Shown here in pieces: positions 5,400 through 33,455 of a DNA stretch of 33,455 nucleotides. The stretch is from Atractiella rhizophila (lineage: Eukaryota). The notes beneath the pieces are model-generated. The model saw only the letters and a list, made by a program, of their open reading frames with translations, was not told where the DNA came from and made no database searches. The stretch spans positions 1 through 33,455 of the forward strand of contig MU271670.1 in the NCBI GenBank assembly GCA_021432655.1, read 5' to 3'. The position numbers were made by a program, and so were the translations under genes. Position 1 is the first letter of the stretch, and every line of letters starts with the position of its first letter.

Positions 5400-8300
5400 T
5401 CAATGTACATCAGCTATTAATCTGCAGCAATCTTCTTCACCTCCTTTGTCACCCACTTCCATGTAGATTAACTTTGCGTCCTCAAATGCTGCCAGAGCGC
5501 CCTCATTCCATCCACATTGAAGACTGATCTCTCCTATACTGAAGAAACAGTTGGCTTGACCCAGTCGATCTCCCACTTCTATATAGATTATCTTGGCCTC
5601 CTCAAATGCCTTCAGAGCATCCTCATTCTGCCCACGTCGAAAATCCATCTTCCCAATGTTACAAATGCATTTGGCTTGACCCTCTCGAGATCCTACTTCT
5701 GTATAGAGTACCTTTGCGTCCAAAAATGCTTTCAAAGCGTCTTCATTCCGCCCACATTGAAAATCAACCTCTCCAATGTTGTTAATACAGCACGCTTCAC
5801 CTCCGTGGTCGCCGACCTCTATACTGAGTACTCTCGCCTCCTTGAATGCCACCAAAGCATCCTCATTCCGCCCACATCGAAAGTAAATCTCCCCAATGTT
5901 ATTGACACAGTGACCTTCAGCCTGTCGATCTCCCACTTTCATATAGAGCCCCTTTGCCTCTGTGAATGCCTTCAACGCATCCTCATTCCGCCCACATTGA
6001 AAATCAATTCGCCCAACACAGCAGATACAGTTGGCTTGACCCAGTTGATCTCCCACCTCCATGTAGAGTATGTTCGCCTCCTCGAATGCCTTCAGAGCAT
6101 CCTTGTTCTGCCCACATCGAAAATCGATCCGCCCAATGCCACAGATGCAATTGGCTTGACCCTCTCGAGATCCCACTTCCACATAAAATACCTTGGCTGC
6201 CTTGAACGCGTTCAGTGCCTCCTCATTGCACCCACATTGAAAATCAATCTCCCCAATGCTGTAGATGCAGTTGGCTTGACCATGTCGAGATCCAGCTTCT
6301 GTATAGAGCACCTTTGCCTGCTTGAATGCCCTCAGTGCCTCCTCCTTCTGCCCACATCGAAAATCGATTTCCCCAATGCTGAAAAAGCAGCAGGCTTGAC
6401 CATGGCGAGATCCCAGTTCCATATAGAGCCCCTTTGCCTCCTCAAATGACTTCAGTGCCTCCTCATTCCGCCCACATCGAAAATGGATCTCCCCTATGCT
6501 GAAGGAACTGTTGGCCTGACCCAGTTGATCTCCCACTTCTATATAGATTACCTTTGCCTCCTCAAATGCCTTCAGAGCATCCTCGATATGCCCACATCAA
6601 AAATCAACCCGCCCAATGTTGTTGACACAGTTGGCTTGACCCTCTCGAGATCCCACTTTCACATATAATACCTTAGCCTCCTCGAATGCCTTCAGTGCCT
6701 CCTCATTCCGCCCACATTGAAAATCAATCTCTCCAATGCTGTAAACGCAGTTGGCTTGACCCTCTCGAGATCCCACTTCCATATAGAGTACCTTTGCCTC
6801 CTTGAATGCCTTCAGAGCATTCTCATTCTTGCCTTCAGCCCGAAAACAAAAGCCAAGAACCATTGTCAGCAAACGCTTTTGGGCCAACCATTTGGACTGT
6901 CTGTAGGTCAGAAAAAGTGACATTAGTCCCAACCATTTGGACTGTCTGTCACCAGGAGAAGACGGTATTCCCAGCCTCATATCTACGACATGCATTGCCT
7001 GTTGGAAGAGTGAAGGTGAGAGCCGATGTTTCAGGCGTAGGAAGTCAAATATGTTCTCTAAATGCTGAAGAATTGGTAGAGGGTCCGGTAGGTTCAACAT
7101 GCTTGTGAGAAGGACATGTTCAAGATTTGGATATTGTTCGCGGAAGAGAAACAGTGCATTCTGTTCCTTGTCGATTTCAAACTGTGTTATATTTTTCTCG
7201 GCTTTCCCCATGAGATACTTCACCAGAGGCAGGAGTGACAAAGGCACAGTCATCGAAAATGGTGGTTTGGAACGAGAGACAAGGTGGTTGAGGTATTCAC
7301 GGATAGGAGTAAGCATGCGCAGGTTGCGTTCCAGATCATCGGCAAGCCCAATCTTTGAAATCACAGAGATGACTTTGAAGACACTTTTAGATGTATACGA
7401 GCTTGAAATGAGTGTTGCCAAATCATGGTGGGATAGACCATCCGGCACCCATGAAAGTAGTGCAAGTGCAAAGACAGCACGCTTCCCTTCATTTTTGAGG
7501 GCAGGAGAATCGAGGGAAAATGATATCGAGGTTTTAAGCGTGATGGCATCTGGGCTGTCTTCGTCCCAGAAAACCTTTGTCTTTTTCTGCTTCCACTCAG
7601 CTACTAATTCTTTGATTGTCATAGTTGAATCCTCATGGGCACGCAGAGCGAATAGCTTGATAGACAGGGCGTGGAAGTCTAGCTGCTCTACTAGCTGTTG
7701 GACCAGTGGGAGCGAGAACCCATCCTCTCTCTGAAATGTGTTTTCGAACAGTGCAAGCGCACCGTCTCTCGGCAAACCACCAACTGAGATCTTGACAAAC
7801 TTTACAGGCCGTTTCCCCTTCACTTCCAGAGATTTCACATCCAAACTTTCCACTTGGTCTCCGCGGTGGGCCACGACAAGTACTGACCCCTCTGAGTTGT
7901 TTGAAAGAAGGGCCCGAAAAAAGTTTTGTTTATTGTCGCTGTCAGCACGCAGCGGAGTTTCAAAATTGTCTAAAACAAGAAGGCATTTTCGACCCCTGAA
8001 GTAGTCGGCCAAGGCCTTAAGTGAGGGTTCGCTGGATTGGGGCAGTGCGAAGACATCGTTGCGGATGTGGTCCGAAAGCTTGGCAAATGTATCAAAGTTG
8101 TCACAGCGAACCCAGTAGCGGAGATCTTCTCCAGTCCCTCGTGTCAAATCTGTGAAGAAACGCTTGACCTCTTCCAAGTGCACTGTGTCGAGTGCAACGG
8201 TGGTTTTGCCGTTTCCAGCTCCACCAACAATCGCAACGTGGCGCCCATCAAGTATAGCTTCTCTAGCACGTTGGATCTCATCCTCGCGGGCAAAGCAAGA

Positions 8301-9691
8301 ACCTGGAGGCGGTAATGGCAACCGTCGACGAACTGCAATCCGTTCACTGCAGACTAAAGAGCATCAACATGGTATCTGCACAAAGGTAACATACCCTGCA
8401 CAAGAAACTCAGCGGCATTGCGCGCTTCGAAACCCATTACTTCCATATAAGCCCTCGTACGGCCCACGACGTCCTCCGTTCGCTCCCACTCCTCCCACTT
8501 GATGTCGCCCATAGTGTAGACCGAAAAGCGGTGATAGCGATGTCCCAGACCTCCATGCTGCATCCTCATCTTCAACTGATCTGCGATGTGGGAACAATCG
8601 TGTACAATCGCCTTCACAGCGACTTCAATCTCGCTTTCAGTCTGGCCCCATTTGACAGCCGGAGCGATCCCTGACCCCAGAGAGACGAGACAGGCGATTT
8701 GGCTGCCTTCTCCCCAAATTCGCTGTGACTCTTCAATTGCTGTTATCGCTGGGTTATTGTTCCCTATGGCAACATATTTCGTTTTGTCGATGACAATAGG
8801 AGGAAAGAATCCAGGAGCAGAAGAAGTCGCTCTTGCGGCTTCCCACACCGTGCACAAAGCAGCAGAACGACCTGCAGCAGGGACGTGGTACGTGCGCATC
8901 TCTGTTGAAACAACTGCATCGGACTCGTACCTTGAGAGGACGAAAGTCCTGCACCTATCTTTGATTGGCTCGTCGTTCATTGGAATTTGAGAGGCCGACG
9001 CAGACGATGGAGCATGTCGCGCAATGATCTCGTGGAAGACGGTTTCGAGCCTCTCCGCAGAGTACACGGAGGCTTCTGTTGAAAGACGAGCTTTTTCGGG
9101 AAAGACACTCTGCACGATTTGTTCGTATGCGCTAATAGATTCACGAACTGTCATTCCCAACCGTCCAAGCATCAGCGCGATCCACCCTCCAGTAGAAGTG
9201 CCACAGATGAGATCGAAAACATCGCACGGCCGGACTTCCTCTCCTTCGGGAACTCCGAGGAGGTTTCCGACCTGGAGCATGACGACTTCGAGCATGTAAA
9301 GGGTGGAGAAGGTACAGATGCCCCCGTTGTCGACGGCGAGGATTCGGACACCTTTTTCGTTTGCCATCTTGACATTCTCTGGGACTTTGAAAACTTTAAC
9401 AGTTTGAGCGGGGGAGGAGACGTGAGATAGAAAAGCTGATGGAGTAGGTCCGGAAGTAAGGGGCGGCGTTGCGGTACCCGATAAGAAGCGAAATATCGGC
9501 TGAAATATTGTCTTTTTGACGTTGAGGAAGGGACTTGGTTGAGAATTTTGCCGCATCACAGAGTGGTTCCGACCTGCGTCGCGTTCCCCCAATGGCGTTT
9601 CTTGCGATTTGAGAATGAATGACTTGTCGTCGTCAGATACGTCCATGGGTTCTTCATGATCGTGATCGTTGGAAAAGGCAGAAGTATCCAT
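5400..9691 (-). CDS. Fungal NLR-like protein: patatin-like domain - STAND NTPase (NB-ARC/nSTAND-like) - TPR array; carries an in-frame TGA at 6597-6599
   Basis: Exon 1 (9691-8395) is patatin-like: RILAVDNGG, FDLICGTSTGG, WEAARATSSAP. A 41-nt GT-AG phase-1 intron at 8394-8354 joins it in frame to the NTPase ORF (Walker A GGAGNGKT, Walker B LLVLDNFE, LDFHALSI, RMLTPIREY). 40-aa TPR units follow. ORFs 6597-8321 and 5400-6536 are in the same frame and separated only by one TGA. Confidence 0.9.
5401..6840 (-). repeat. Tandem array of about 12 x 120-bp (40-aa) highly similar TPR-coding repeats
   Basis: Strict 120-nt period visible in the DNA (e.g. GTTGGCTTGACCC and AATGCCTTCAG recur). Consensus is approximately GQANCxxxIGEIDF(R/Q)CGRNEDALKAFEEAKVLYMEVGSRE. 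Confidence 0.95.
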
Positions 9692-10904
9692 CGTCTTGAT
9701 AAAGTATCAAAGGTGATGAAGATTACTGCGTTTGAACGCGAGGAACACTAAAGAAATATAAGCAACAATTCTAGTTGCGAGGAGCAGCAAAAAATAAACG
9801 GAACAGTACTTGAAATCGTGCTGATAGATGGTGAAGAGAGAAGAACAGACCAGGAATACTTCTCCAGATTCGATGGTGAACCTGGCGAGGTTCCAAGAGG
9901 ACTGAACCGATCCCAAACATCCGTACGTACGAATGCACAGATGATCATGATGAGATCACTGAGAGGATAAGTGAAGCTGAGGGCAAGTGATATGCGAATC
10001 ACAAGGACAAAAACTAGGAATATCAAGGATGGTGCACTACAGATCTTCCAGTGTTGAGTGAAGAACTGCTCTCCTAAGGACGTCAAACGGGTCCTCCGAA
10101 GCAATCATAAGAACATGCAAAGATGCATAATTTGAAACTTGAACGACGAAGAAACAGATAGAACGTGAAACCAGCGTAAGACCCTTCTCCCACGCCTCCT
10201 TCTAAGCAGCCATACCATTAGCCTCAGCTAGTCTCAAGCATCATGACAGGCTTCTACATTTGATACTCATAAGGACTTTCCCCAAATCGCAACTTACACG
10301 CAATTCAAAATCTAGTGCCTTAACAGCTGAATATCTTGTTTTCTCTGAAAGCTGTCGAAGCGAGCGACGTTGTCGATTGTTGGGATAGACTGACCCACAG
10401 CCTGTTCAACTGTCACGTGTTCCTTATTCTGGAATCGTCCGGACAGGTGGACGGATATGGTTAAGGTCAAGAGAAAGCTCATGAGCTCAGCGTGATCTGC
10501 CCGTGGCAGAAGGTTATATGCCTTGTTCAAAACAACGATCAACATCCCAACCACCTTCTCCTTCGCCGACCTTCACCAAATCAGCACCATCTTGCGCTCA
10601 TACCAACAGTTATCTGCTTTCCAGGCAGGAAGACGACGCTCTTTCACTCGTAACAGTTTTTATAAGCGTTATTTATCGTATCCCGTATCATTTCGGTGAC
10701 TTAATTCGAGAACCTTCAACAAACGCAAAGTGACTTTTGTTTGGAATATTCGGGGAAGGTAGCAATCAACAATAAGGTCCGTTTCTTTGTTGCTCCTATT
10801 GCCCAGCAAGGGATTGGGGTGTTGATCTTTGCTATTTTTTATACTTGCCCGCCCTTTCCCACGACGCCAGTTCGAAGTTCGAGGCTCGTAGCTTGACGGA
10901 AAAG

Positions 10905-13900
10905 ATGTCCTCTCCACTGGCTGCCTACCGTTTCCCGCCCCCGTCGCCCACCGTATCCTCTCCAACATCCTATCGCTTCCCACCAATCCCAAACAATCCT
11001 TCCTCTCGATCCTCTTCTTCGCCCTCCAAGCGAAATTCATCCTCCCCTCCTCCTGCTTTTACACCGCCCGCCAAACGCAACAGACTTTCCTTCGAGCGGC
11101 ACCCCTCATTTAGACGGCGCGGGTCTCTCCCTTTACCTCAATTAATCAACTCGGTACCTAATGGATCTGCTGGTGACATGGAAAATGGCCCAGCGTTCCT
11201 TAACGAAGCGAGGAGAGGGAGTCTCCCCGACATCTATGCGAATGTAGGGGCTGGGTGGGCCACGCATGCATGGGGCTCCAACGGACAGGGAAGCTCCAAG
11301 GGGGTTGCAGAAGAAGAGCCGGAGGAAGAGGAAGAGTATATGTCCGTTTCTGAAGGCGCTTCGGAATATGGGACTGTGAATGAGTCGTTCGAGAATTCGA
11401 AGATGGAAGTGGAAGTAGAAGAGACCCATGAACCGCCCATCATCGTCAATCCTCCGTCTCCTGACGCTCGCGCTTCCTTTCCGACATCGCAGGCAACCGC
11501 TGTCAGAACGACTGAACCGCAGACTCCTCCGCAGAGTCCTCCACCCAATGGATTGGGATTCAAAGGCTTCAACCTTCACTCTCTCTCCATAGCTTCCTCT
11601 CCTTCCGCACCGTTAAGTTCCCAACCACGACGCTTAAGCGTAGACCTGAAGTCGCCCTTGGCCTCGTCTAGTGAGAGGCGGAGAAGTGTGGATCTCCGAA
11701 TGGGAACGGGAGTGGGAATGGAAGGTGGAGGGACGAGCGGTTGCATGACTGGTTTTGGAATGGCAATGCAAATGGCCGAGGGGATGTCTAGAAAGGAAGA
11801 GGAGTATGTTTTCCAATCCCTCGTCTTTGCAAATGGCTAATCCTGTGGCAGATGGGGGAGGAACGTTCATTCCGTCCTCAAGCATTGCATCTCGCTTTGT
11901 TCCCTGAACGAATCCCCTATCCATGCTCACTCGCACGCACATACGCACTCTCATCCTTCCATCATCGCCGCCTCACTCAACGTTCCTTTACTCTCTCCCA
12001 CCTCGACCACTTCCTTTCCTCATTCGCCTGCTGGATCAACGGTCCCTTCCTCCTCGCACTCGGAAGATAGTCTTTCCACGGACGGTTCGAATCAGAGCAG
12101 AAGCAGTTCCATCTCCTCTCAAGGTGCGGCATTCGTGACTACGGCCATCGATGGATCACACGGTGCAGAGCGTGGGAGAGGGGAAGTGAGAAGGGAGGAT
12201 TTGCTACTCATGTTGCAAACCTGGGAATTCAGCTCCCTAATCCTCGAAGAGCATACCCTCCTAGCGGCAGCTAGGATTGTATTTGGCGCTGTCTTGAATT
12301 TGGAGGGAATGGAAGAGACATTGCGGCCACACTCTATTGGCGCAGGCGAAGAAGAGGAGGACTGGAAAAAATCGCTCGAGGGTCAGATCGCTCTTTTCCT
12401 TGCCTCTCTTGCTGGCGCCTACCACTCCAGAAATGGATACCACAACTTCTCTCACGCTGTTGACGTCCTCCAAACCGTCTATTGGATGCTGGAGAGAATG
12501 GGCCTCGTGCCGCCACTTTGGAATGAAAGGAAGGTGTGGAAGAGAAAGAGCAGCGTCAAGAAGAGCGTGGTAGCGAAGCTGTTGGGACCAGCAGAGTGCT
12601 TCGCTTTATTGATTGCGGCGGTGGGTCATGATGTAGGACATCCAGGACTCAGCAACGCATTTATGGTGCGTCTTTCGCAGTCTGCTTCCTTCCACTCATT
12701 ATTTACCCAATTTGCCGCGCAGATTAATGGACGAGCACCGTTGGCACAAGTGTACTCGGAAAAGTCGGTTTTGGAAAATTTTCATACCGTCACTCTCCTC
12801 CACATGCTCAAGCGGTTCAACCTGGGCTACCTCCTCGACGCGTCGTCTTCCTCAACAACCTTCAAGAAGACTCTCATGTCATCCGTATTAGCGACTGATA
12901 TGGCAAAACATTTTGGATTTGTGGAGCGCTTGGGACAAGTTGAGGAAAGAGGCGGATGGAGGGATGCAGAGGAGGACAGGTTGCTTTTGTGTTCGACGCT
13001 GATGAAATGCGCCGATATATCCAATCCTGTGGGTAGTAATCACTTGCTTAGCTTGCTTAGCTTATGATGCCTTTCCAGACGCGCCCACACGAAATCTCGA
13101 AGCTCTGGTCAACAGCGTTGTTTAAAGAATGGGCCGTCCAGAGCGAGTTCGAGTCTGAGTACTCGCTACCATTGACATTACCAAGGCTGGAGAGGGAGAG
13201 CGGCGAGGTTATTGGACCCAATGGCATTGAAGGAGAGATGGACGGCAAGAGTCGACTTCAACAAGCCAAGGGGCAACTTGGGTTTATCAACCTCTTTTGC
13301 AAACCCTTGTTTGAAAATATGGGAAAGGTCATCGAAGGTCAGTGCCTGCACCCGTCCCACGGCAAAGATTGAAGTTGCGTGAACGATGCAGAATTCGAGG
13401 AGTTGGTAGAAAGGCTTCAGGAAGGAATCGTGGCATGGGAATCCATCGCTAGTGGCGGTAAAACAGCTTCCCTAAAGTCTCATTCAACACCACGGCCGCA
13501 AAGACATTCCCCACCACTCGACGCCACACCGCGCCTCATCCAGCGCTCTGCCTCCAGTTCTCCTCCACCGTTCATCCCTCCTCTGCGCACGATTCCCTCC
13601 GCCCTTAAGACAACCATTATTCCTTCAGTCGCTGCAACAGTCGCCCCATTCTCTCCCTCTTTCCCACTGTTGGTCTCGCACACCGCACCCGAGGACCTGC
13701 TTCCGCCGAGCATGAACGTTGCACCTTCATGTGGTGGACGCTGTGGGGCATTTACTGCTAAGTGCTTCGAGTGCGTGCAGGCTGAGAAGGGAGATACGGC
13801 GAAGAGAGCGGGGGGTTGGGAGATTGAAACTGAAGAAGAGAGGAGAGAGTGGCCACCATATCCTTTCAGGCCAGCGAAGAAGAGATCTAGCAATACCTCT

Positions 13901-14484: not shown

Positions 14485-16026
14485 TCATACGTCTATCAGA
14501 CGACCCGTTCCCACCCCCACAGCTTCCTCCTCGTGAATTTCAGCTTCAATGTCACTTCCATACGCAACCAACCCATCCTCTGCCTCCTGCAGCCTCGATG
14601 AGACCTGTTCCATCAACCCCAACGCTCGATCTGCTTCGCTTCCTTCTATCATTTGCCCAACTTCTTTCACTTCCGCCCTCAAAATAACCCATTCACCTTG
14701 CCGTTCTTTCTTTTCTACTTCCACTGTTGCAACAACAAGGACGGTGGGAAACTCCACCATCATCTTACCCTTCAGGGCTACGAGCCAACAATCCGTGGGG
14801 GACAGAATATGGAACGTAGGTTTTGGTAGTTCTTTGTTCTCCGAAAATGATGGACGTGGTGACAGATCAGGTATTGAGTGATTTGTAGGGACGAACGCGG
14901 GGAGTTGAGCAGCAGGAGGGTTGACCTGAAGATTAGCAGGAGGGTTGACATGAAGATTAGGCACAGCAGGCCTAGCGGCGTGGAACTGTCGATGGTGAAA
15001 TGGATATGATAATTCGTGCCCGGGTGGAAGTAGCGGTTGCATGAAAGGCTCCAGCGGGAGAGGTTGGATTGCATTTTGGGTAACAGACGGAATCTGCGGC
15101 TGCAACTGAGGAGGTTGGAAATTATGGGATGGAGCCGCAGTTCCCCAGACCCGGATGCTCATATTTTGATTCGGATAGGATTTCGTGCGTTGTCCTTCAG
15201 GCTGCCATTGAGATTGCTCCTGATCTTCTTTCGTTGCTGGTGCAAGGAGATCCGAATTCTCACGTTTTCTTTTCTTCCCTGTCACTTCGTCACTGCCATC
15301 GTCGTCTTGAGTGAGTAACAGACTCGGAACGGCAAGGAGGAAACATCTCTCTCCTTCCTTGATATTTTCTGATACTCTCGGCCCTGGATCATTGATAAGA
15401 GATGCGACCGACGGATCAGCAAAAGCGCGGGAGAAGGATGCGCTGACTGTCTCGTCTGCGGGTACTAATGGTGTGATTTTGACGCTATTTTGTGGAGTGG
15501 AAGAAGCGTTCTCGGAATCGGGGGTTGAAGTGATGTTCCATTCGACCGTGAGGAAAATCTGCTTTCGTCTGTGTAAGTCAACAAAGAAAGTCAGCACGCC
15601 ACGACTATCATGGAAAGAAGTCAAAGCGCACTTATCATCCCATTTGCCCGTGTTCAGCTCTCTCCGCTCCATGCCGACGGGCATTCGCCTCACAATCCAT
15701 CCGTGCCTCCGAATTCTTCTCTCCCACTCAATCTGTTTCTTACTCGCCCGCTTCTTTGTCAAAGACGGGTCACGTTTCACGTCTCCCAAAACCCTCCCAA
15801 CCTCCTCCAAATATCTCAAATCATTGCCCATCTCCATATATCCATACTGCTTCAGGGGAACGTATTCCGCCACATCTCTGAGCCCATTGCATCCTTGCAC
15901 GCGAGAGTTCAAAATTGATTTGTGAGCCCGGACGCACGCAGCGCTGCAGGTTCGAAGAGAACAGCGAGGACAGGTATATTTGGATGGGCCGGATTGGCAG
16001 ATCTGACATAGGACGGGATGCACCAT
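14485..16026 (-). CDS. BCD1: Box C/D snoRNA biogenesis protein BCD1/ZNHIT6-like (zf-HIT)
   Basis: N-terminal CQIC..KYTCPRCSLRTCSAACVRAHK..GCNG zf-HIT, followed by NDLRYLEEV, MPVGMERRELN, TVEW and LKGKMMVEFPT as in BCD1. Probable in-frame 63-nt intron at 15631-15569. Confidence 0.88.
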   Translation of the reverse strand: MVHPVLCQICQSGPSKYTCPRCSLRTCSAACVRAHKSILNSRVQGCNGLRDVAEYVPLKQYGYMEMGNDLRYLEEVGRVLGDVKRDPSLTKKRASKKQIEWERRIRRHGWIVRRMPVGMERRELNTGKWDDKCALTSFHDSRGVLTFFVDLHRRKQIFLTVEWNITSTPDSENASSTPQNSVKITPLVPADETVSASFSRAFADPSVASLINDPGPRVSENIKEGERCFLLAVPSLLLTQDDDGSDEVTGKKRKRENSDLLAPATKEDQEQSQWQPEGQRTKSYPNQNMSIRVWGTAAPSHNFQPPQLQPQIPSVTQNAIQPLPLEPFMQPLLPPGHELSYPFHHRQFHAARPAVPNLHVNPPANLQVNPPAAQLPAFVPTNHSIPDLSPRPSFSENKELPKPTFHILSPTDCWLVALKGKMMVEFPTVLVVATVEVEKKERQGEWVILRAEVKEVGQMIEGSEADRALGLMEQVSSRLQEAEDGLVAYGSDIEAEIHEEEAVGVGTGRLIDV

Positions 16027-16095
16027 TGTTGGGTAGTAGTAACCAACAAGACCTAAGGGGCCGCTCATTAAGGCAGGAGCACCACCAACACAGAC

Positions 16096-18662
16096 ATGGA
16101 GCTGGGCCTGTTTTATGCCGTTGTTGGAAAGGACTTCTATAACCCTCCAGCATACATTAAGACGTCAACCCAATTTCCACTTGTATCCGAACTCATAGCT
16201 CAGCTTCAAAGCGCCACCCGAATGGCATCACTCACCCTCCCAACAGCGAGTGAAGGGGCTTGTCGACTCAGGCTTTGGAAAGTCGACGCCACTCCCACGA
16301 GCAAACCACTTTCGGTACAAAAATCGCATCTAGACTACACGGAATCGGTTCTCCGATCGCTCACGTTTCCCTGGAGCCTTCCTGAGAGCGATCATCATGC
16401 TGCTCCCCCCGAAGACCCTCATTTGGTATTGGAGTTTCTTGCTCCAGGTGATCCCCTCAGCGTTTATTGGACAACTCAACCGGATGTGTCTCGCCTGCAC
16501 ATTATTGCAGAAATTCTGCCGTGTCTCCCTTCCGATTGTGTGTCAGTCTCATCTCCAGCACTTTGCTTTTCTGACTAAATTGTCAGCGTCGGCATCGCAG
16601 CTCAAACCTCACAACCTCACGAAAATACAACGACTGGCGCGCTTCCAAGTTGAAAAGCAGCGATCGTTTTCTCCATCCCTGATTTCGATGAATAACATCC
16701 GCGACGTTACTCTGAGGTCTCCATCCGTGCTCACCGACGTGAAGGATGAACTAGAGAAAATTTTCATCGTGCCCCGTGGAACAGGAGCAACCTTGGTGCA
16801 TACGCTGGCGTGGCAAATGCTTTTGTGTCCGAATTTGGTGCTGGTCAAGCTACTTCAGACCGGCTGGTGACAAGGGCAGAACTTGTCCACTATTCTACGG
16901 CCGTAGAATATTGTGGCGTTCGACTCGAGCGCTATCATGAGGCTACGCAGGCATATTTTAACATGACATACATTCATGGATCCCGTCGCGATCGAGCTAA
17001 GTTCACGATTGGGTATCCCCTTGAGGTCCAATTTTTTAGCGTAAGCTCACCTTGCGACACCGGTTTCGAGCCGACACTTCACTTGACACTTGAGTTACAG
17101 CAATAGAAACTGGAAATTTCACTTACTGCCTTTCATATCCAAGCCGGACGAGCGTGGCGAGACGAGTTTAAATATCAACCTCGGAGCGATTACGAGCTTC
17201 GAAACGACGCTGACAAACTTCCGCGACTTTTAGTTCAGGTTCAGTCGCATGTGGACCAAGAGGACGAGACGCAAATGCTGCTACAAGCTGCTGTTGTGGT
17301 TAGGATCGCGCAAAACGCCATCAACAACGGTGGAACCATGGACAAGCCATGGCAATTCATCATAACTTGTTATTATGTGGATAAAGAGCTAGAGGTTAAG
17401 CGTTACCTAATGTGTAGTAAGGCTATCGAACAGCCTAACGTAAGCACATCACTATTTAGACGCTCGCTCTGAAGGCTTTGCAGGGGGAGTTGTTTACCGA
17501 TGTGACAAATTTTGTCTCACCTCTCGACGGGATGCATTCAGGTTTCTCCTCGGTCTGTACAATTCACCATCTGTGATCGACTGGAAGCACCCCATCGATT
17601 CGGAAAATATTCAGCAAGACCTGAATGACGACGAGTTAATGCAGCACAAATCTTTGACTAAGCTGGGCAGTGACAAGACAAGCCGAAAGCGCAAACCGAC
17701 TGACGAGAATGGCGGCGATCAGTCTCAAGCCAGGATGCCAAAGTCGCAGAAAGTAGATGGTCCTGCAGTCACAAACACTCTTCAAAGCGCAGGTTACTCC
17801 CTCATCCGCCTTGAACCCAATCGTTGGAAACTTCTTGACGAGGTGCATACTTGCTAGCCGAGAACGTTCAGCACTGATGACAACATTCCAGCCGTCATCC
17901 ATTCCTTCCCCGTCAGTAGCAATCGTTCGCCGACAAGGTGAAAAGGAACAAAAGTTCATCATCAAGGTAATTGAAGGACCCGATTATGAAGAAACGGAGA
18001 TCCACTGTTCTCTCGCCTCCATTGCCGACCCGAAAAATCATACCATGAAGATCATCGAAGTTTTGAAAGTGAAGACTATCAAATTCTTGTTCTTCCACTC
18101 GACAAACCTCTCCGCACTCTCAAAAGCCAACTTGAAACTGCCCTCGCAAGCTCTCTCTGTGAGCAACTGCTCGAAGCTGTCGGCTTCATGCACGGTCAAG
18201 GCTTTGTGCACTTGGATTTGAAACCCCCATAACCTCGTTGTCACGGGCGATACTCTCCAAATAATTGACTTTGGACTGTCTTGTCGAGTTGGCTGCAACA
18301 CATTATTGAGAGGTTTCAGAGGGACAACGTCGTGGGTTGCCCCCGAAGTCGGGGAAAACGAAGGACCGAAGCAGACGTTCGAGCCCATCCCTGTCCATCC
18401 TTGGGCTACTGGAAGCATTATCCTTCGTTTCTTCGGTGCATTCCTCCCAGCTGGCCACCAGCTTTTCAAGCTTGCAGGGCAATTGACCTCCCCTGATCCG
18501 AGGGCCCGCCCACGCCTTCCAGCGACTGGAAACCTTAAAATGAGGCCCATTGAATCCCATAATCTGCCTCTTAGTAAACACATGTTAGTCCGTCCTCCCA
18601 CCGTTTATTCGAAGTTGATTATATTTATAGCAGAAGAGATTACTCTCAGCACACGAGACTAG
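16096..18662 (+). pseudogene. Crinkler-like modular gene: CRN ubiquitin-like N-terminus + REase-like middle domain + Ser/Thr kinase, frameshifted
   Basis: N-terminus has LRLWKV...PLSVYW...LHIIA, equivalent to the CRN LFLAK/HVLV motifs. Middle: YQPRSD...PRLLVQVQS...DETQMLLQ (17170-17290). Kinase: FIIKVI, GFVHLDLKP(fs)NL, IIDFG, GTTSWVAPE. Frameshifts near 16790, near 18070 and in the C5 run at 18224-18228. Confidence 0.75.
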
Positions 18663-24336: not shown

Positions 24337-26258
24337 CTATTCGTACACTCGATTAAAGATCCTCTCATTGTTCTCCCGAGTAAACCCGCTCCTCTCGTTC
24401 GTCAACCTCACTCTCCAATTCAGGGCCTCCTCCTTCGAAGCCTTTCGTTGTCCTCCGACCTCCTTCAACTCTTCCGGAGTGTACCAATCCTGCTGTTGAG
24501 GTGGGATGATAGAGGTGTCAGGCACCTCATCGTTGGTTGGATTGACGAGGAAAAAAGCCAATATTTTGCGGTGTCCCGGTTTGGTTTTATCTATGAGAGA
24601 GAAGGAAGAGACCCGATGTTGGTCATTATTGGGAAAGCATATGCATCTCCCTTCTTTGATGGTCATGCTTCCTAGTGGCTGATTCAGCCGTCCACCGCTG
24701 TGCGCAGATTGAGCAGTCACAAACTAGGCAGGAGGAAAAGAGAGACGAACATTTTCAAGGCGTATTCGGCCATGAGTTGCGCCTTGTTTTCCCAATCTTC
24801 TGGCTAGTTACATTATTGGTACAAAGGACCAAGTTTGTGGTAGTAAAGGAAAAGACGAACCTCATCCACAGCCCGTCTGAAGCTCAACTTGCTCTCCGTA
24901 ATGTTTTCTTCGTCGTAATAATAGATTCCTGTCGCGGAGATAGCCTCGTTCATCCTACCTTCGACGCGCCACTCCCCGCCAGGATATGTCGGTTTCTCTG
25001 GGGTAAGAAGGATGTTTACGAGCTTGATGATGACTTTGGCCGGTACACCACGAATAGATATAGTAGGATAGTTGGCGAACTGTTTGGCGTGAACACCCTT
25101 CTTCGGATATTTCTTGACATCCGAGACGACAATCTGCCAAGCCCTCTTCAAATATTTCACATCCTGTTTTCTCACCTCGTATTCTGCCAGCTCGGCATTT
25201 GAAAGGAGGGGAGGCACGACGCCATCATACCTCGTCGGAGCTTGGGTTGGAGATGCTGGTGCCGAAGGTGCCTTCCCGCCGTCCTCTTCGTCCTCTTCCA
25301 GCTCTTCATGGTTGTCTTCGTCTTCCTCATCAAAGAACTCGCCATCTCCAACCATTACACGCTGTCGTGCTACATTTGGCAGCATCTGCAGGTCCGATAA
25401 GACCCTTTCGAACATAGGTACAAATAAGAGAAAGATATCTTCGAGCGCTTTGTAGACTTCCAGATATTTCTTCGGGTCCAGATTATTGATGTAGCTCGCA
25501 ATCTTGCACATCTTTCCATCTTCCGAAACTTTGAAAGGAGTAGGAAGCCAGCTAAACGATTCGGAGACGGTGTAGTCCTTTCTCCAAGGGGGAAAAGTCC
25601 ATAAGGAACCCACGGGACACCAGGGCAAAATCAGCTCTTGGATGTTCCACCAATTCCTTTCTTCAACAGGCATGGATCGTGAATATGCACGAGTGCGGCG
25701 GTAGACGATGGGGTAGAGGGAGGGATCGACAAGATTTAAAACTTGATTGTCCGAGCGAGGTTGCCAGTCCTTTTCAGATTCAGGGAGATTCTCGAGCGGA
25801 TGCAAGGAGGAAATGAGTGCCGAGCGCGTGTCTGGTGCGACCAAGGAATCGCTTTGCCAGATTCCATCGAAGCAGGAAACCTCGATACCTCCTTCCGTTC
25901 GAAGTCTGTCATATTCCTGTGGGAAGTTTGGCGGAGCTTATGAAAGAAGATCTGACGACACGCCTTCAGTTCCTTCAGCACCCAATCAACGGCCTCTGGA
26001 CTAAGGCACCCTTTCATAAAGTTTACGGGTATCACTTGCTCCAAGGCTTCCCTCTTCCACTTTTCACGAATATTCTTGTGCTTGTATTTCTGCAACGCAG
26101 GTGTTTCAGTCTGAAAGTAATTCCGAGAGAGCGAGAAGCTTGACCTCCCACCAGCGAGGTTTCGAGCGAATAGAAGCAGAGAGGAAACACATCCTCAGCT
26201 CCGTTGCAGAAAGCGCCGTGTGAGATTCATACTCAAAGGGGTTCAGGTGCTTTGACAT
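24337..26258 (-). CDS. DUF4246-family protein (fungal, 2OG-Fe(II) oxygenase-like)
   Basis: ELRMCFLSASIRSKPRWWE|K, VLNLVDPSLYPIVY, FSWLPT, SYINNLDP, VIIKLVNILLTPEKPTYPGGEWRVEG, FPNNDQHRV, GHRKILAFFLVNP. Introns at 26144-26090, 25963-25917 (GC-AG) and two more between about 24860 and 24700 give a continuous frame. The 3' end is uncertain. Confidence 0.85.
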
Positions 26259-30380: not shown

Positions 30381-31381
30381 GTTCTCAACCTTCTCTCCGC
30401 TCCCCTAATCCTCATCAAAATGCCATCTGCTGACCCTATCCACCACCACGTCGCTCCAAACTCGAATATCAGCCCTCAACCTCAATCTCACCTTTAACCG
30501 CATAAGTCCCACGGAGGCTTGAGAACGGCAATGTCGATGCAACCGTCGGAGGAGAAGAGTCGTGGTTCAGGCAGTGAAAGTTTCGCGTAACAGGAGACTT
30601 AAGAGGTCTCCTACGATGGAGGATCGGGATTAGAATGTGGAAAAATTCGGGCTGGTGGGAGATCGGACTGCCTCTGGCCAATGGGCAACAGGGTTACCAC
30701 GAAGCTGTTGGTTGTCAAAGGACTCGTCTGGTGCGTCTTCTCCTCCTTATCCTTTTTGCCTACCTTCTTGAAAGTTTTAAAACATGATGGTTTATCACCG
30801 TGATGCTCCTATGGCTTGCAAAAGCATCGCAGCACACGGCGCTCCTCCTCGCTCCCTCACCCCAACTTACATACTCGTCAACCTGGCCATCCACCACTTA
30901 TCTGCGAATTATGACGTTAAAGCGGTGGTACGGGGCTAGAGGACTCTGGCAACATATCCCATCAACGTCCGAGTGGGGCCACGAGGACCAAAAACTCCAC
31001 AGATTACTCAGAGCACGCAAGTTGCGAGCAACTTAGGATATCCCACTCCGAGGAGCTGTCCATGATGATATGTTCATTAATCATTCAGAAAGTTCCTCAG
31101 ATCTCCGCGACCTTGAGTTAAGTACTGACTCGCCCACGGCCCGTGAAGTCTTTTAAGCCCATTTCAGTCCACGAATCTGCTCTTATAGCGCCAACATACG
31201 AGTTGGATAATCGAGAGAGAGATTCTCTATGGTTGGGGCTTCCGCTAGAAAATTGCATAACTGACCTTACTTGCACCTGAAGCACCTGAAGCCTATCTCG
31301 ATCTAGCCCAGATACCTCTAACATCCCATCTTTTCATCCCCTACCGCTCCATACGCACAGGCCCTCCATCATCTCGACACA

Positions 31382-33455
31382 ATGGCTCTCTTTCCTGCCC
31401 TCAAAAAGCCGAACGAGAAAGGGTTACGAATCCTCTCCATGGAGAACGGAGGTACTCATGGCTTTTCCACACTCTACACGGTGGAAGCTATCATGAAACA
31501 AGTAGCTGTCATCTTGGGTGTTCATGACCATCAGGAGCTCCGACCCTGCGAATTCTTCGATCTGATCTGTGGAACCTCGACTGGTGGCTGGATTGCTCTT
31601 ATGCTCGGAAGGCTGGGAATGACGGTTCGTCAATGTAACGATGCCTACCTTGACATTGCGGCGCAAGTCTTCTCGGAACGAGCACGCATGCCTCCATCAA
31701 ACAAGAACTCGGACATACCTCACTATCATTTCTCGGGGACGGAGTTCGATCAGGCGTTTATCAATCTAATCGAGAACCATATCTCCCTCACCGCCAACCA
31801 GGGCAGAATGGAGCCGATGAGGGATCCTGATCCTCTCTTTCAGCAGAGGTGTAGAACATTCGTCATGGGGACTGACGAGGCTAATGCTGTTGCGTGTGAA
31901 ATACGGACGTACGACTCTGTACTAAAGACTCAGTCTGCTGCCACCTGCACGATCTTGCAGGCAGCCAGAGCGACATGTGCCACACCAAACTTACTTCCTC
32001 CTCTCACTTTTGATAATAACGATGGAGTGTATAATCCCTTGGTCATTGCTCTTACGGAATCGAGGCGGATATGGGGCCAACAAAGCGAGATTGCCTGTCT
32101 CATTTCTTTGGGCACTGGACTTAGTCCGACCGTCACGATTGGACAAACTTTGGAGCAGCTCGATCGAACGGTGAACGAGATTGTGGTGGATTGCTCGAAA
32201 ATTGCCAATGAAGTCAAGGAGAGCGTACAAGAACGCAGGTTTGAGTCCTGTTTCCATCCATCGTGCATTGGTAATTAGGGCGACATTAGCTCTGAGGAAT
32301 CGATGGAAAAGGACAGATACATGGAAACTATGAGCCATCAAGGTGTTGATTTGGCAAAAACTCTAACTCAACGTATGTGGATCAATCATCCCTATTCTGC
32401 AATGACTGACACCTCAATGTGCAGCTCATTACAAACGGGCTGCCTTTCGCAGGCAGCTGCGATCGCCGACGTCTTTTACAAAGGACACAATGGCACGATC
32501 TCTCTCAGAAGTCGCTGAGGGTATCATACGCACTGGGTACAGCCATGTTGGCTGTGGCAGGAATGACGAGGCTCTGAAGGCGTTCCAGGAGGCGAAGAAG
32601 ATCTGTGCGGAGGCTAGTTTGAGGGACAGAGAGGCCTACTGTGTTAGAGGCATGGGAGAGATCAACCTTCAATGTGAGAGGTTCGACGAAGCTCTAATGG
32701 GTTTCAAAGAGGCGGGGGAGATCTTCCTCGAGCTGGGATTACACGAGGAATGGGCTGACTGTGTCACGGGTGTTGGAGATGTTCAATTTCAAAGCGGACG
32801 ATACGACGCGGCATTGGAGGCGTTTCACGAGGCAAAGGACATTTTCGTCCAGGTGGGGTCGCGCGATCGAGCCGCTCGATGTCTCAAGGACGTCGGAAAT
32901 GTCCATATTCAATGTGGCAGATATGATGACGCTCTGAAAGGATTCGAAGAAGCGAAGGAGGTGTATCTGGGGGTTGCACTGCTCAATGAGGTAGCCGACT
33001 GCATCGACTGCTTGGGAGAGGTTCACCTTCGGTGTGAGAGGTACGAAGAGGCTCTAAAGGCTTTTGAAGAATCGAGGCAGATTTGCATCGAGCTTGGGTT
33101 GCGAGATCGCGTCGCCAACAACATGAAGATCAGTGGAGAAATTGATCTTCAATGTAGCAAGTACGACAACGCTCTGAAGGCATTCAGGGATGCGAAGGAG
33201 ATTTACCTCGAGCTTGGATTGCGTGAGGCGGTAGCAGACTGCCTCAAAAACATAGGCGAAGTGGACCATCGATGCAGTAGGCATGTCAACGCTATCCTAG
33301 CCTTTAAGGAGGCGAAAGAGATTTACGTGGAGGTGGGATTTCGCCTTGGAGTGGCTGACTGCGTTAAAGGTGTTGGAGACGTCGAGTTTCGTTGTGGGAG
33401 GTACGATGAGGCTCGGAAGGCTTTTCATGAGGCAAAGGAAATATACCTCGAAACT
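31382..33455 (+). CDS. Patatin-TPR paralog lacking the NTPase domain; in-frame TAG at 32276-32278; runs off the window
   Basis: Patatin: NEKGLRILSMENGG, FDLICGTSTGGWIALMLGRLGMTV (identical to the paralog), QAARATCATP. After the TAG the same frame continues GDISSEE..YME..LTQ. A 52-nt phase-1 intron at 32373-32424 is followed by a stop-free frame of 40-aa TPR units to the window end. Confidence 0.88.
32530..33455 (+). repeat. TPR-coding array, 120-bp period, at least 7 units, more diverged than the 5401-6840 array
   Basis: Units read ADC..x.GEV..(Q/R)CGRYDEALKAF.EAKEIY.E.G.R with a 40-aa period. Confidence 0.9.

Follow-up and report, generated by a model that had tools for sequence, protein, structure and literature searches.

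A transcribed patatin-TPR gene of Atractiella rhizophila without the nucleotide-binding module of its NLR-type paralogs

Background

The described systems closest to the gene reported here are the fungal allorecognition NOD-like receptors (NLRs) PLP-1 of Neurospora crassa and HET-Z1 of Podospora anserina, which have a patatin-NB-ARC-TPR architecture. Cell death through PLP-1 requires both the P-loop and the patatin activity, and PLP-1 associates with itself, according to passages of its description (PMC12881547). The gene discussed in this work starts at position 31382 on the forward strand of contig MU271670.1 of Atractiella rhizophila (assembly GCA_021432655.1), and the window analysed is this one whole contig of 33,455 bp, off the end of which the gene runs. 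It has in common with PLP-1 and HET-Z1 the N-terminal patatin domain with a GxSxG motif and the C-terminal tetratricopeptide repeats (TPR), but it is devoid of any NB-ARC or STAND module and is therefore called here the NOD-less gene, NOD standing for the nucleotide-binding oligomerization domain. The other members of its family do carry a P-loop between patatin and TPR. Moreover its TPR units are of 40 residues and resemble those of LGN, and are not of the 42-residue TPR_10 type found in proteins such as P0008 and P0122.

Two groups of solved proteins resemble the separate parts of the product. The N-terminal domain has its best sequence and fold matches among solved structures in the patatins CapV and CapE (PDB 9jek, 8zr9, 9iom) of the cyclic oligonucleotide-based antiphage signalling systems (CBASS), at 15-17% identity. 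By their PDB titles these are ligand-bound filaments, lipases that are switched on by assembly; they differ from the product described here in being bacterial, single-domain, activated by cyclic nucleotides and without TPR. For the C-terminal part the highest-ranking fold matches are LGN/Pins proteins (PDB 3sf4, 5a7d, 6hc2), which form a superhelix of TPR units of about 40 residues. At 16-18% identity this implies no relation in function or descent, and the array described here is much longer.

Truncated relatives of plant and animal NLRs (TIR-only or TN proteins, CARD-only and PYD-only regulators) are NOD-less products that act as effectors or decoys, and they usually retain the N-terminal domain only. 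The NOD-less gene of A. rhizophila differs from them in that effector and sensor repeats are both retained and only the switch is dropped. Surveys of fungal NLRs, which select genes by their NOD, mention truncated NLRs in the passages concerned only as genes missing N or C termini, and those passages do not discuss NOD-less effector-repeat proteins (PMC4986451, PMC12258605, PMC9815663).

Results and Discussion

A patatin domain joined to TPR without an NTPase between them

Inside the window the spliced coding sequence comprises 657 codons and no stop. Coding exon 1 (31382..32238, +) encodes the patatin-like domain, recognized by Pfam, by identity to a paralog, by the NCBI model P0001, by the AlphaFold2 (AF2) model and by Foldseek. 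Coding exon 2 (32290..32372, +), which is present in P0001 and in the spliced contig of run X3 described below, encodes the end of the patatin cap region, and the third exon contains a linker and the TPR. P0001 is a protein of 638 aa, 99% identical to the exon 1 translation with which it was found and named 'FabD/lysophospholipase-like protein, partial'. The first 298 residues of the ATG frame at 31382 match the Pfam family Patatin (PF01734) with 49.7 bits against a cutoff of 27.7. They are identical at 133 of 291 positions (46%, E 2e-83) to the open reading frame (ORF) 8354-9706 on the minus strand, which belongs to a paralog in the same window (5400..9706, -) that has a TPR array and a STAND NTPase (GGAGNGKT) besides its patatin. 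That the patatin is held in common with an NLR paralog, as a first-pass annotation made from the letters of the window had proposed, is thus borne out.

Neither coding part matches an NTPase family of Pfam at E<=0.01, the Walker A motif G....GK[ST] does not occur in P0001, and a tblastn search with the NOD of the paralog returned no other NOD copy in the window. Measured from the intron common to both genes, the distance to the first full TPR unit is 463 residues shorter than in the paralog. With no Walker A and no NTPase, about 463 residues are therefore missing, close to the loss of some 490 residues of STAND and helical sequence that had been suggested before.

The place of the loss is marked by the intron and by the linker. 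The intron 32373..32424 (+; 52 nt, GTATGT..ACTGAC..CAG; joint 32372>32425 in X3) is of phase 1 and splits a codon as C|CT after LTQ, and the intron 8394-8354 of the paralog splits the homologous codon as G|TC after LVQ, so the two introns share the position ascribed to them earlier. The linker that follows (32425..32474, +; P-HYKRAAFRRQLRSPT) is homologous to the pre-NOD segment of the paralogs. When the comparison is anchored at the intron, 6, 6, 7 and 4 of its first 16 residues are identical to P0004, P0002, P0006 and P0005, figures which were reached by 6, 5, 1 and 182 of 20,000 shuffles, respectively. The register of the linker claimed by the first-pass annotation hence holds for three of the four paralogs (6-7 identities in 16 residues, reached by no more than 6 of 20,000 shuffles), and in the anchored comparison only. 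An unanchored profile of the paralogs' segment from linker to P-loop gave a non-significant 1.1 bits, with 94 of 2,000 shuffles scoring as high or higher, and past residue 16 of the linker no identity above chance was found. In all five Atractiella paralog models examined the Walker A lies 48 residues after the start of the linker; P0003, the model of which departs from the family at the intron, and P0024, which is short, were left out of the set used for this segment.

About 27 residues separate the common intron from the first TPR half unit, which occupies residues 28-48 of exon 3 and fits, with 4.5 bits and a conditional E of 0.0014, the latter half of a TPR unit. TPR thus begin shortly after the linker, some 28 residues past the intron, in accordance with the earlier proposal. 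Of the pre-NOD segment 16 residues remain, followed by about 11 that can be assigned to nothing and then by the half unit. Residues 17-45 after the intron were considered as a remnant of the helix preceding the P-loop and rejected, given the 1.1 bits of the unanchored profile and the fact that residues 28-48 are the half unit. The patatin domain is thereby joined directly to the LGN/Pins-like TPR superhelix, through about 45 poorly ordered residues.

Both the N-terminal effector-type domain and the C-terminal superstructure-forming repeats of fungal NLRs are therefore present in this gene. It is not an NLR by the definition that asks for a central NACHT or NB-ARC domain with Walker A, with a small doubt left by the unseen 3' end.

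Transcription and splicing

Four sequencing runs (X1-X4), out of 15 listed, were compared with the window. X1 and X2 are DNA runs and may be the source sample. From each came a single contig (of 3,727 nt and 3,699 nt, respectively) that spans 31000-33455 without a mismatch and extends 1,104 nt past the end. X3 is a separate run with another organism label, and its kind is given as '?'. Its record 11 is a contig of 4,691 nt which matches with 0 mismatches and skips three GT..AG segments of 51, 51 and 52 nt (31232-31282, 32239-32289 and 32373-32424), none of which is skipped in X1 or X2. Because of these three joints, absent from the DNA runs, X3 is taken to be RNA. Its spliced contig indicates that the gene is transcribed, it confirms the junction at 32373-32424 for which the first-pass annotation had asked transcript evidence, and it removes the objection that there might be no transcript at all. 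The join between patatin and TPR is spanned by DNA contigs and by the spliced contig with 0 mismatches. X4, from another study and guessed to be RNA, holds 32652-32857 and 33194-33455 and crosses the window end; it carries a single G>A change at 32711, synonymous at a third codon position (GAG>GAA). The locus is a transcribed, correctly spliced gene of A. rhizophila.

A nonsense codon inside an intron made of coding sequence

The frame that had been described as free of stops in the window contains a TAG at 32276-32278, which had been overlooked. For this reason a further intron is needed, and it is the 51-nt intron 32239..32289 (+; GTTTGA..TTAG; joint 32236>32288, cut +2, in X3). P0001 uses the same splice, reading ..VQER|SSEESMEKD.. 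across it. An intron of 19 or 40 nt around the TAG was also considered and rejected as too short or frame-shifting; the X3 contig has the 51-nt intron instead. As its length is a multiple of three the TAG is removed in frame and the reading frame survives.

This intron is specific to the lineage and contains what was once coding sequence. The codons around the TAG (FESCFHPSCIGN*GDI) are collinear, without gaps, with GHRYHRFSVYTMGDI of the paralogs, and a tblastn search with the patatin of the paralog aligns unbroken across the intron up to 32377. Together these argue that 32239-32289 is old coding sequence; the models of the paralogs treat the homologous sequence as coding. The intron holds a remnant of the family's Y-F/H-R-F-x-V .. 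GDI segment, and the YFRFNV..GL segment of fungal NLR-type patatins is accordingly absent from the protein, its homologous codons lying inside the intron. A nonsense codon arose in the C-terminal patatin cap, and a new in-frame intron formed from the coding sequence itself now removes it, a case of intronization.

The TPR array and its continuation

The TPR array (32508..33455, +) is composed of 40-residue (120-nt) units and continues past the contig end. Pfam TPR_12 matches it in five stretches (E 6.9e-35). The part inside the window consists of the half unit, seven full units in register with it, of which the first two score 69 and 68 bits, and a partial eighth. All seven full units match, with 29-55 bits, a hidden Markov model built only from eight units of the in-window paralog. 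The units are 53-66% identical in DNA and Tandem Repeats Finder (TRF) detects no DNA-level tandem repeat in the array. Between units the ratio of non-synonymous to synonymous divergence (dN/dS, NG86) gave a usable value for 15 of the 21 pairs, with a median of 0.24; as dS, at about 1.6, is close to saturation, the ratio bears only on the past of the array. The AF2 model of the repeat region is all-helical with a predicted local distance difference test (pLDDT) of 60-77. Foldseek returned TPR of the LGN/Pins type for the C-terminal part, and a sequence search of the PDB agrees with Foldseek on both parts of the protein.

Position 33455 of the window is position 2,478 of the X3 contig, which has 2,213 nt beyond it, and for 1,104 of these the DNA of X1 and X2 is collinear with the spliced contig. 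The X3 sequence beyond the window matches TPR units inside the window at offsets of 360, 1,560, 1,200 and 1,320 nt, all multiples of 120, and the DNA contigs show the three nearer offsets as well. The loose ends at virtual positions 34407 and 34644, each a string of 30 nt, are codon-aligned and TPR-like (I S V G E R L G I A and H L E L G N L A Q A). These offsets and in-frame strings carry the array in register over 1,218 nt or more past the window, to about 18 units in total. They support a product with a minimum of some 1,060 residues and 18 TPR units, provided that the unseen part has no stop. A search for longer versions of the protein contained none longer or full-length among its 23 matches.

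The patatin domain

Exon 1 holds the ENGGTHG motif (31442-31462, +), the GTSTG motif (31571-31585, +) and the codon of Asp211 (32012-32014, +). The family consensus, taken from an alignment of 61 sequences, reads LDGGGVRG / GTSTGG / DGGxGxNNP / YFRFNV. The catalytic serine motif G64-T-S66-T-G68 (GTSTGG) sits at invariant or near-invariant columns of this alignment, and D211 falls in a column conserved in at least 90%, at the canonical spacing to N218-P219, reading DNN and not DGG (D211-NNDGVYNP). The GTSTG serine and an Asp at canonical spacing are thus kept. An N-terminal extension of about 110 residues found in the paralogs is missing from the NOD-less gene. The AF2 model, calculated from a 61-row alignment, has a mean pLDDT of 72.2 and a predicted template modelling score (pTM) of 0.57, and its patatin core is confident (pLDDT mostly 80-95 over residues 10-290). 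Foldseek matched it to the patatins CapV, CapE and Pat17 with a probability of 1.00 and TMt of 0.59-0.66.

The full-length-type Atractiella paralogs P0002-P0007 have NGGICTF instead of GGGxRG and have no Asp at the canonical DGGxGxNNP spacing, so the NOD-less gene is nearer to the family consensus than they are at both motifs. On these motifs, the patatin domains of the paralogs may be the less canonical ones. Besides the main contigs, X1 and X2 contain short DNA contigs of depth 103-320 (97-123 for the main contig) which match only 31589-31635, with 2-4 mismatches (window 31574-31655, encoding GTSTGGWIALMLGRLGM). Presumably these represent a near-identical motif of many paralogs.

Descent and related architectures

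A HMMER search against 1.84 billion representatives gave 3,142 matches at E<=0.001, and the nearest non-self match, P0024 from Atractiella, is 49% identical. A FastTree phylogeny was computed for 141 patatin domains covering at least 215 query positions, taken from 169 proteins. In it the NOD-less gene is sister to the other seven Atractiella rows with a Shimodaira-Hasegawa-like (SH-like) support of 87, and P0038 joins them at 99. The simplest history is a loss of the NOD from a patatin-STAND-TPR ancestor. The derivation from an NLR by internal deletion put forward in the first-pass annotation is therefore parsimonious as far as the loss itself is concerned. It was not a recent deletion in any sampled copy, given the 46-49% identity, and this includes the NLR at 5400-9691 (46%) from which the comparison had started.

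Of the 91 matching proteins with 500 aa or more, 75 (38 + 37) were scanned with Pfam. Most of the scanned proteins with repeats have NB-ARC, NACHT or NPHP3_N between patatin and the TPR, ankyrin (ANK) or WD repeats. Patatin-ANK proteins without Walker A are P0147 (Stachybotrys chartarum, 613 aa) and P0011, P0013 and P0014 (Metarhizium and Trichoderma, 750-780 aa), and one protein, P0084 (Capronia epimyces, 578 aa), combines patatin with TPR_12 and also has no Walker A. P0013 and P0147 belong to a clade of 15 rows that adjoins the Atractiella family with a support of 79. These five proteins show that the bare patatin-repeat architecture is not unique, and the recurrence of P-loop-less genes that had been anticipated is found in Ascomycota, though mostly with ANK and in P0084 alone with TPR. 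They are predicted models, 29-35% identical to the NOD-less gene, and differ from it in keeping the canonical DGGGxRG, DGG and YFRxNV motifs and in lacking the remnant linker and the shared intron that mark the Atractiella gene as an NLR derivative. What is particular to the latter is these marks of NLR descent (shared intron, linker and type of TPR) together with the intronised nonsense codon.

A conserved homolog with the same junction, the lack of which the first-pass annotation had named among the findings against it, was not found: in a search with residues 283-372 of P0001, which needs shared 5-residue words and gives weak evidence of absence, the query stood alone among 35 candidates.

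Functional protein or relic

The reading that is favoured here, with a probability of about 0.6, is that the gene encodes a functional TPR-tethered lipase or pseudolipase without NOD and is not a dead relic. Without an ATP-driven oligomerisation switch the patatin could be controlled or placed only through partners bound by the TPR. Such control might consist of clustering induced by a partner or of relief of autoinhibition, and the filaments named in the PDB titles of CapV and CapE make partner-driven clustering plausible by analogy. Alternatively, the protein could be a decoy or regulator that titrates a ligand or partner of the full-length paralogs.

Several observations weigh against a functional product. 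The oxyanion motif departs from the canonical form, with ENGGTHG in place of DGGGxRG. The intronised piece drops 17 residues, including the near-universal YFRFNV-type segment, and is followed by a 7-residue gap; with a pLDDT of 35-59 over residues 300-360, damage to the patatin fold is possible. GTTTGA is a weak donor, and the contigs cannot give the share of transcripts that retain 32239-32289. Moreover the RNA nature of X3 is deduced from its three GT..AG joints, and beyond 33455, where at most the last 995 nt of the transcript contig are unseen, the open frame is deduced from the register and the two 30-nt glimpses. With no junction-sharing protein among the 35 candidates and a nearest relative only 49% identical, the NOD-less form may not be conserved. 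The family also shows decay nearby, as the in-window paralog has an in-frame TGA (6597-6599, minus strand) inside its TPR array. Finally, since PLP-1 needs its P-loop to cause death in the passages of PMC12881547 cited above, a copy without NOD may be inert.

The strongest competitor, to which a smaller but substantial chance is given, is that the gene is a relic which is still transcribed. It would derive from an NLR by deletion, have lost its function along with the NOD and be decaying, the 51-nt splice being a fortuitous cryptic intron. The in-frame TAG within ancestral coding sequence, the loss of the YFRFNV-type segment and of the N-terminal extension, the interruption of the adjoining paralog and the dependence of PLP-1 activity on the P-loop (again from passages of PMC12881547) would all suit a relic, and the singleton status of the gene, with no homolog sharing its junction, keeps this explanation alive. 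However, there is a single stop in view, which splicing removes in frame; the 657 codons in the window are open and the TPR register is kept well beyond them. All seven units keep the family consensus, and the Ser and Asp of the patatin motifs are retained. With a divergence of at least 51% from every paralog many stops would be expected under neutrality, an argument that fails only if a closer parent went unsampled.

Far less probable is a permuted NLR with its nucleotide-binding domain downstream of the TPR array, past the contig end, which the gene running off the contig and the unseen nucleotides after the last TPR glimpse would allow. For 1,218 nt or more past the window the sequence consists of TPR that keep the 120-nt register exactly, the 995 nt left over have to include some 3' untranslated region (UTR), and in those of the 75 scanned proteins where an NTPase (NB-ARC, NACHT or NPHP3_N) and TPR, ANK or WD repeats were both detected, the NTPase always lies between patatin and the repeats and never after them; a downstream NTPase, named beforehand as a finding that would overturn the proposal, is thus unlikely. 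An assembly artefact, that is a collapse or chimera joining the patatin exon to the TPR of another gene near 32450-32520, is the least credible explanation even though the contig ends inside a repeat array in a genome with many paralogs, because the junction is crossed with 0 mismatches by two independently built DNA contigs (perhaps from the same sample as the source) and by the spliced contig of a different run, and because units as divergent in DNA as these, in which TRF finds no tandem array, offer no long shared words on which to collapse.

Within the favoured reading of a functional protein, a more specific proposal can be made which should be regarded as doubtful at present. The gene may represent an NLR lineage that works without a nucleotide switch, rescued by intronization, in which a patatin directly under a TPR sensor of at least 18 units would be a NOD-independent effector of cell death or at membranes, or else a decoy by which the full-length paralogs are tuned.

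Other features of the window

Upstream of the NOD-less gene a 51-nt GT..AG intron (31232..31282, +; joint 31230>31282, cut +1, X3 record 11) lies in the 5'UTR. The ATG at 31229-31231 abuts this intron and opens an upstream ORF which, when spliced, reads 8 codons and then TAG (window 31229-31306).

The in-window paralog had been described as an NLR, and it does have the patatin, the STAND NTPase and the TPR of one; the description did not include the in-frame TGA. As assembled, the paralog is either truncated after two units or a pseudogene. The context of the TGA is VDF*CGH, with Q or R at that place in other units. Its NCBI model, P0004, is of 535 aa only. Its phase-1 intron (8354-8394, minus strand) measures only 41 nt and an alternative acceptor giving 48 nt breaks the frame.

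PLP-1 and HET-Z have a linked sec-9 SNARE partner. No SNARE family was found among the 14 ORFs of at least 150 residues in the window, smaller or spliced genes not being scanned. The ORFs 10776-11840 and 11841-13067 (+) abut in one frame, the second matching 3'5'-cyclic nucleotide phosphodiesterase (E 1.8e-39), and an intron may contain the stop that separates them. The window also has genes for a zf-HIT/BCD1 protein (14488-16164, minus strand) and a DUF4246 protein (24816-25937, minus strand).

Conclusions

The gene described here is a singleton in one fragmentary assembly, and NOD-less patatin-repeat models already exist, unremarked, in other fungal proteomes. The intron that removes the TAG offers a clean and datable instance of intronization, in a genome whose introns measure about 50 nt. 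Work on the NLRs of fungi, plants and animals assumes that the NOD couples sensing by the repeats to the effector, and an expressed member without this switch is a natural experiment on that assumption. The NOD-less gene of A. rhizophila could show if a patatin can be controlled through TPR binding alone, or if proteins of this kind serve as regulators or decoys.

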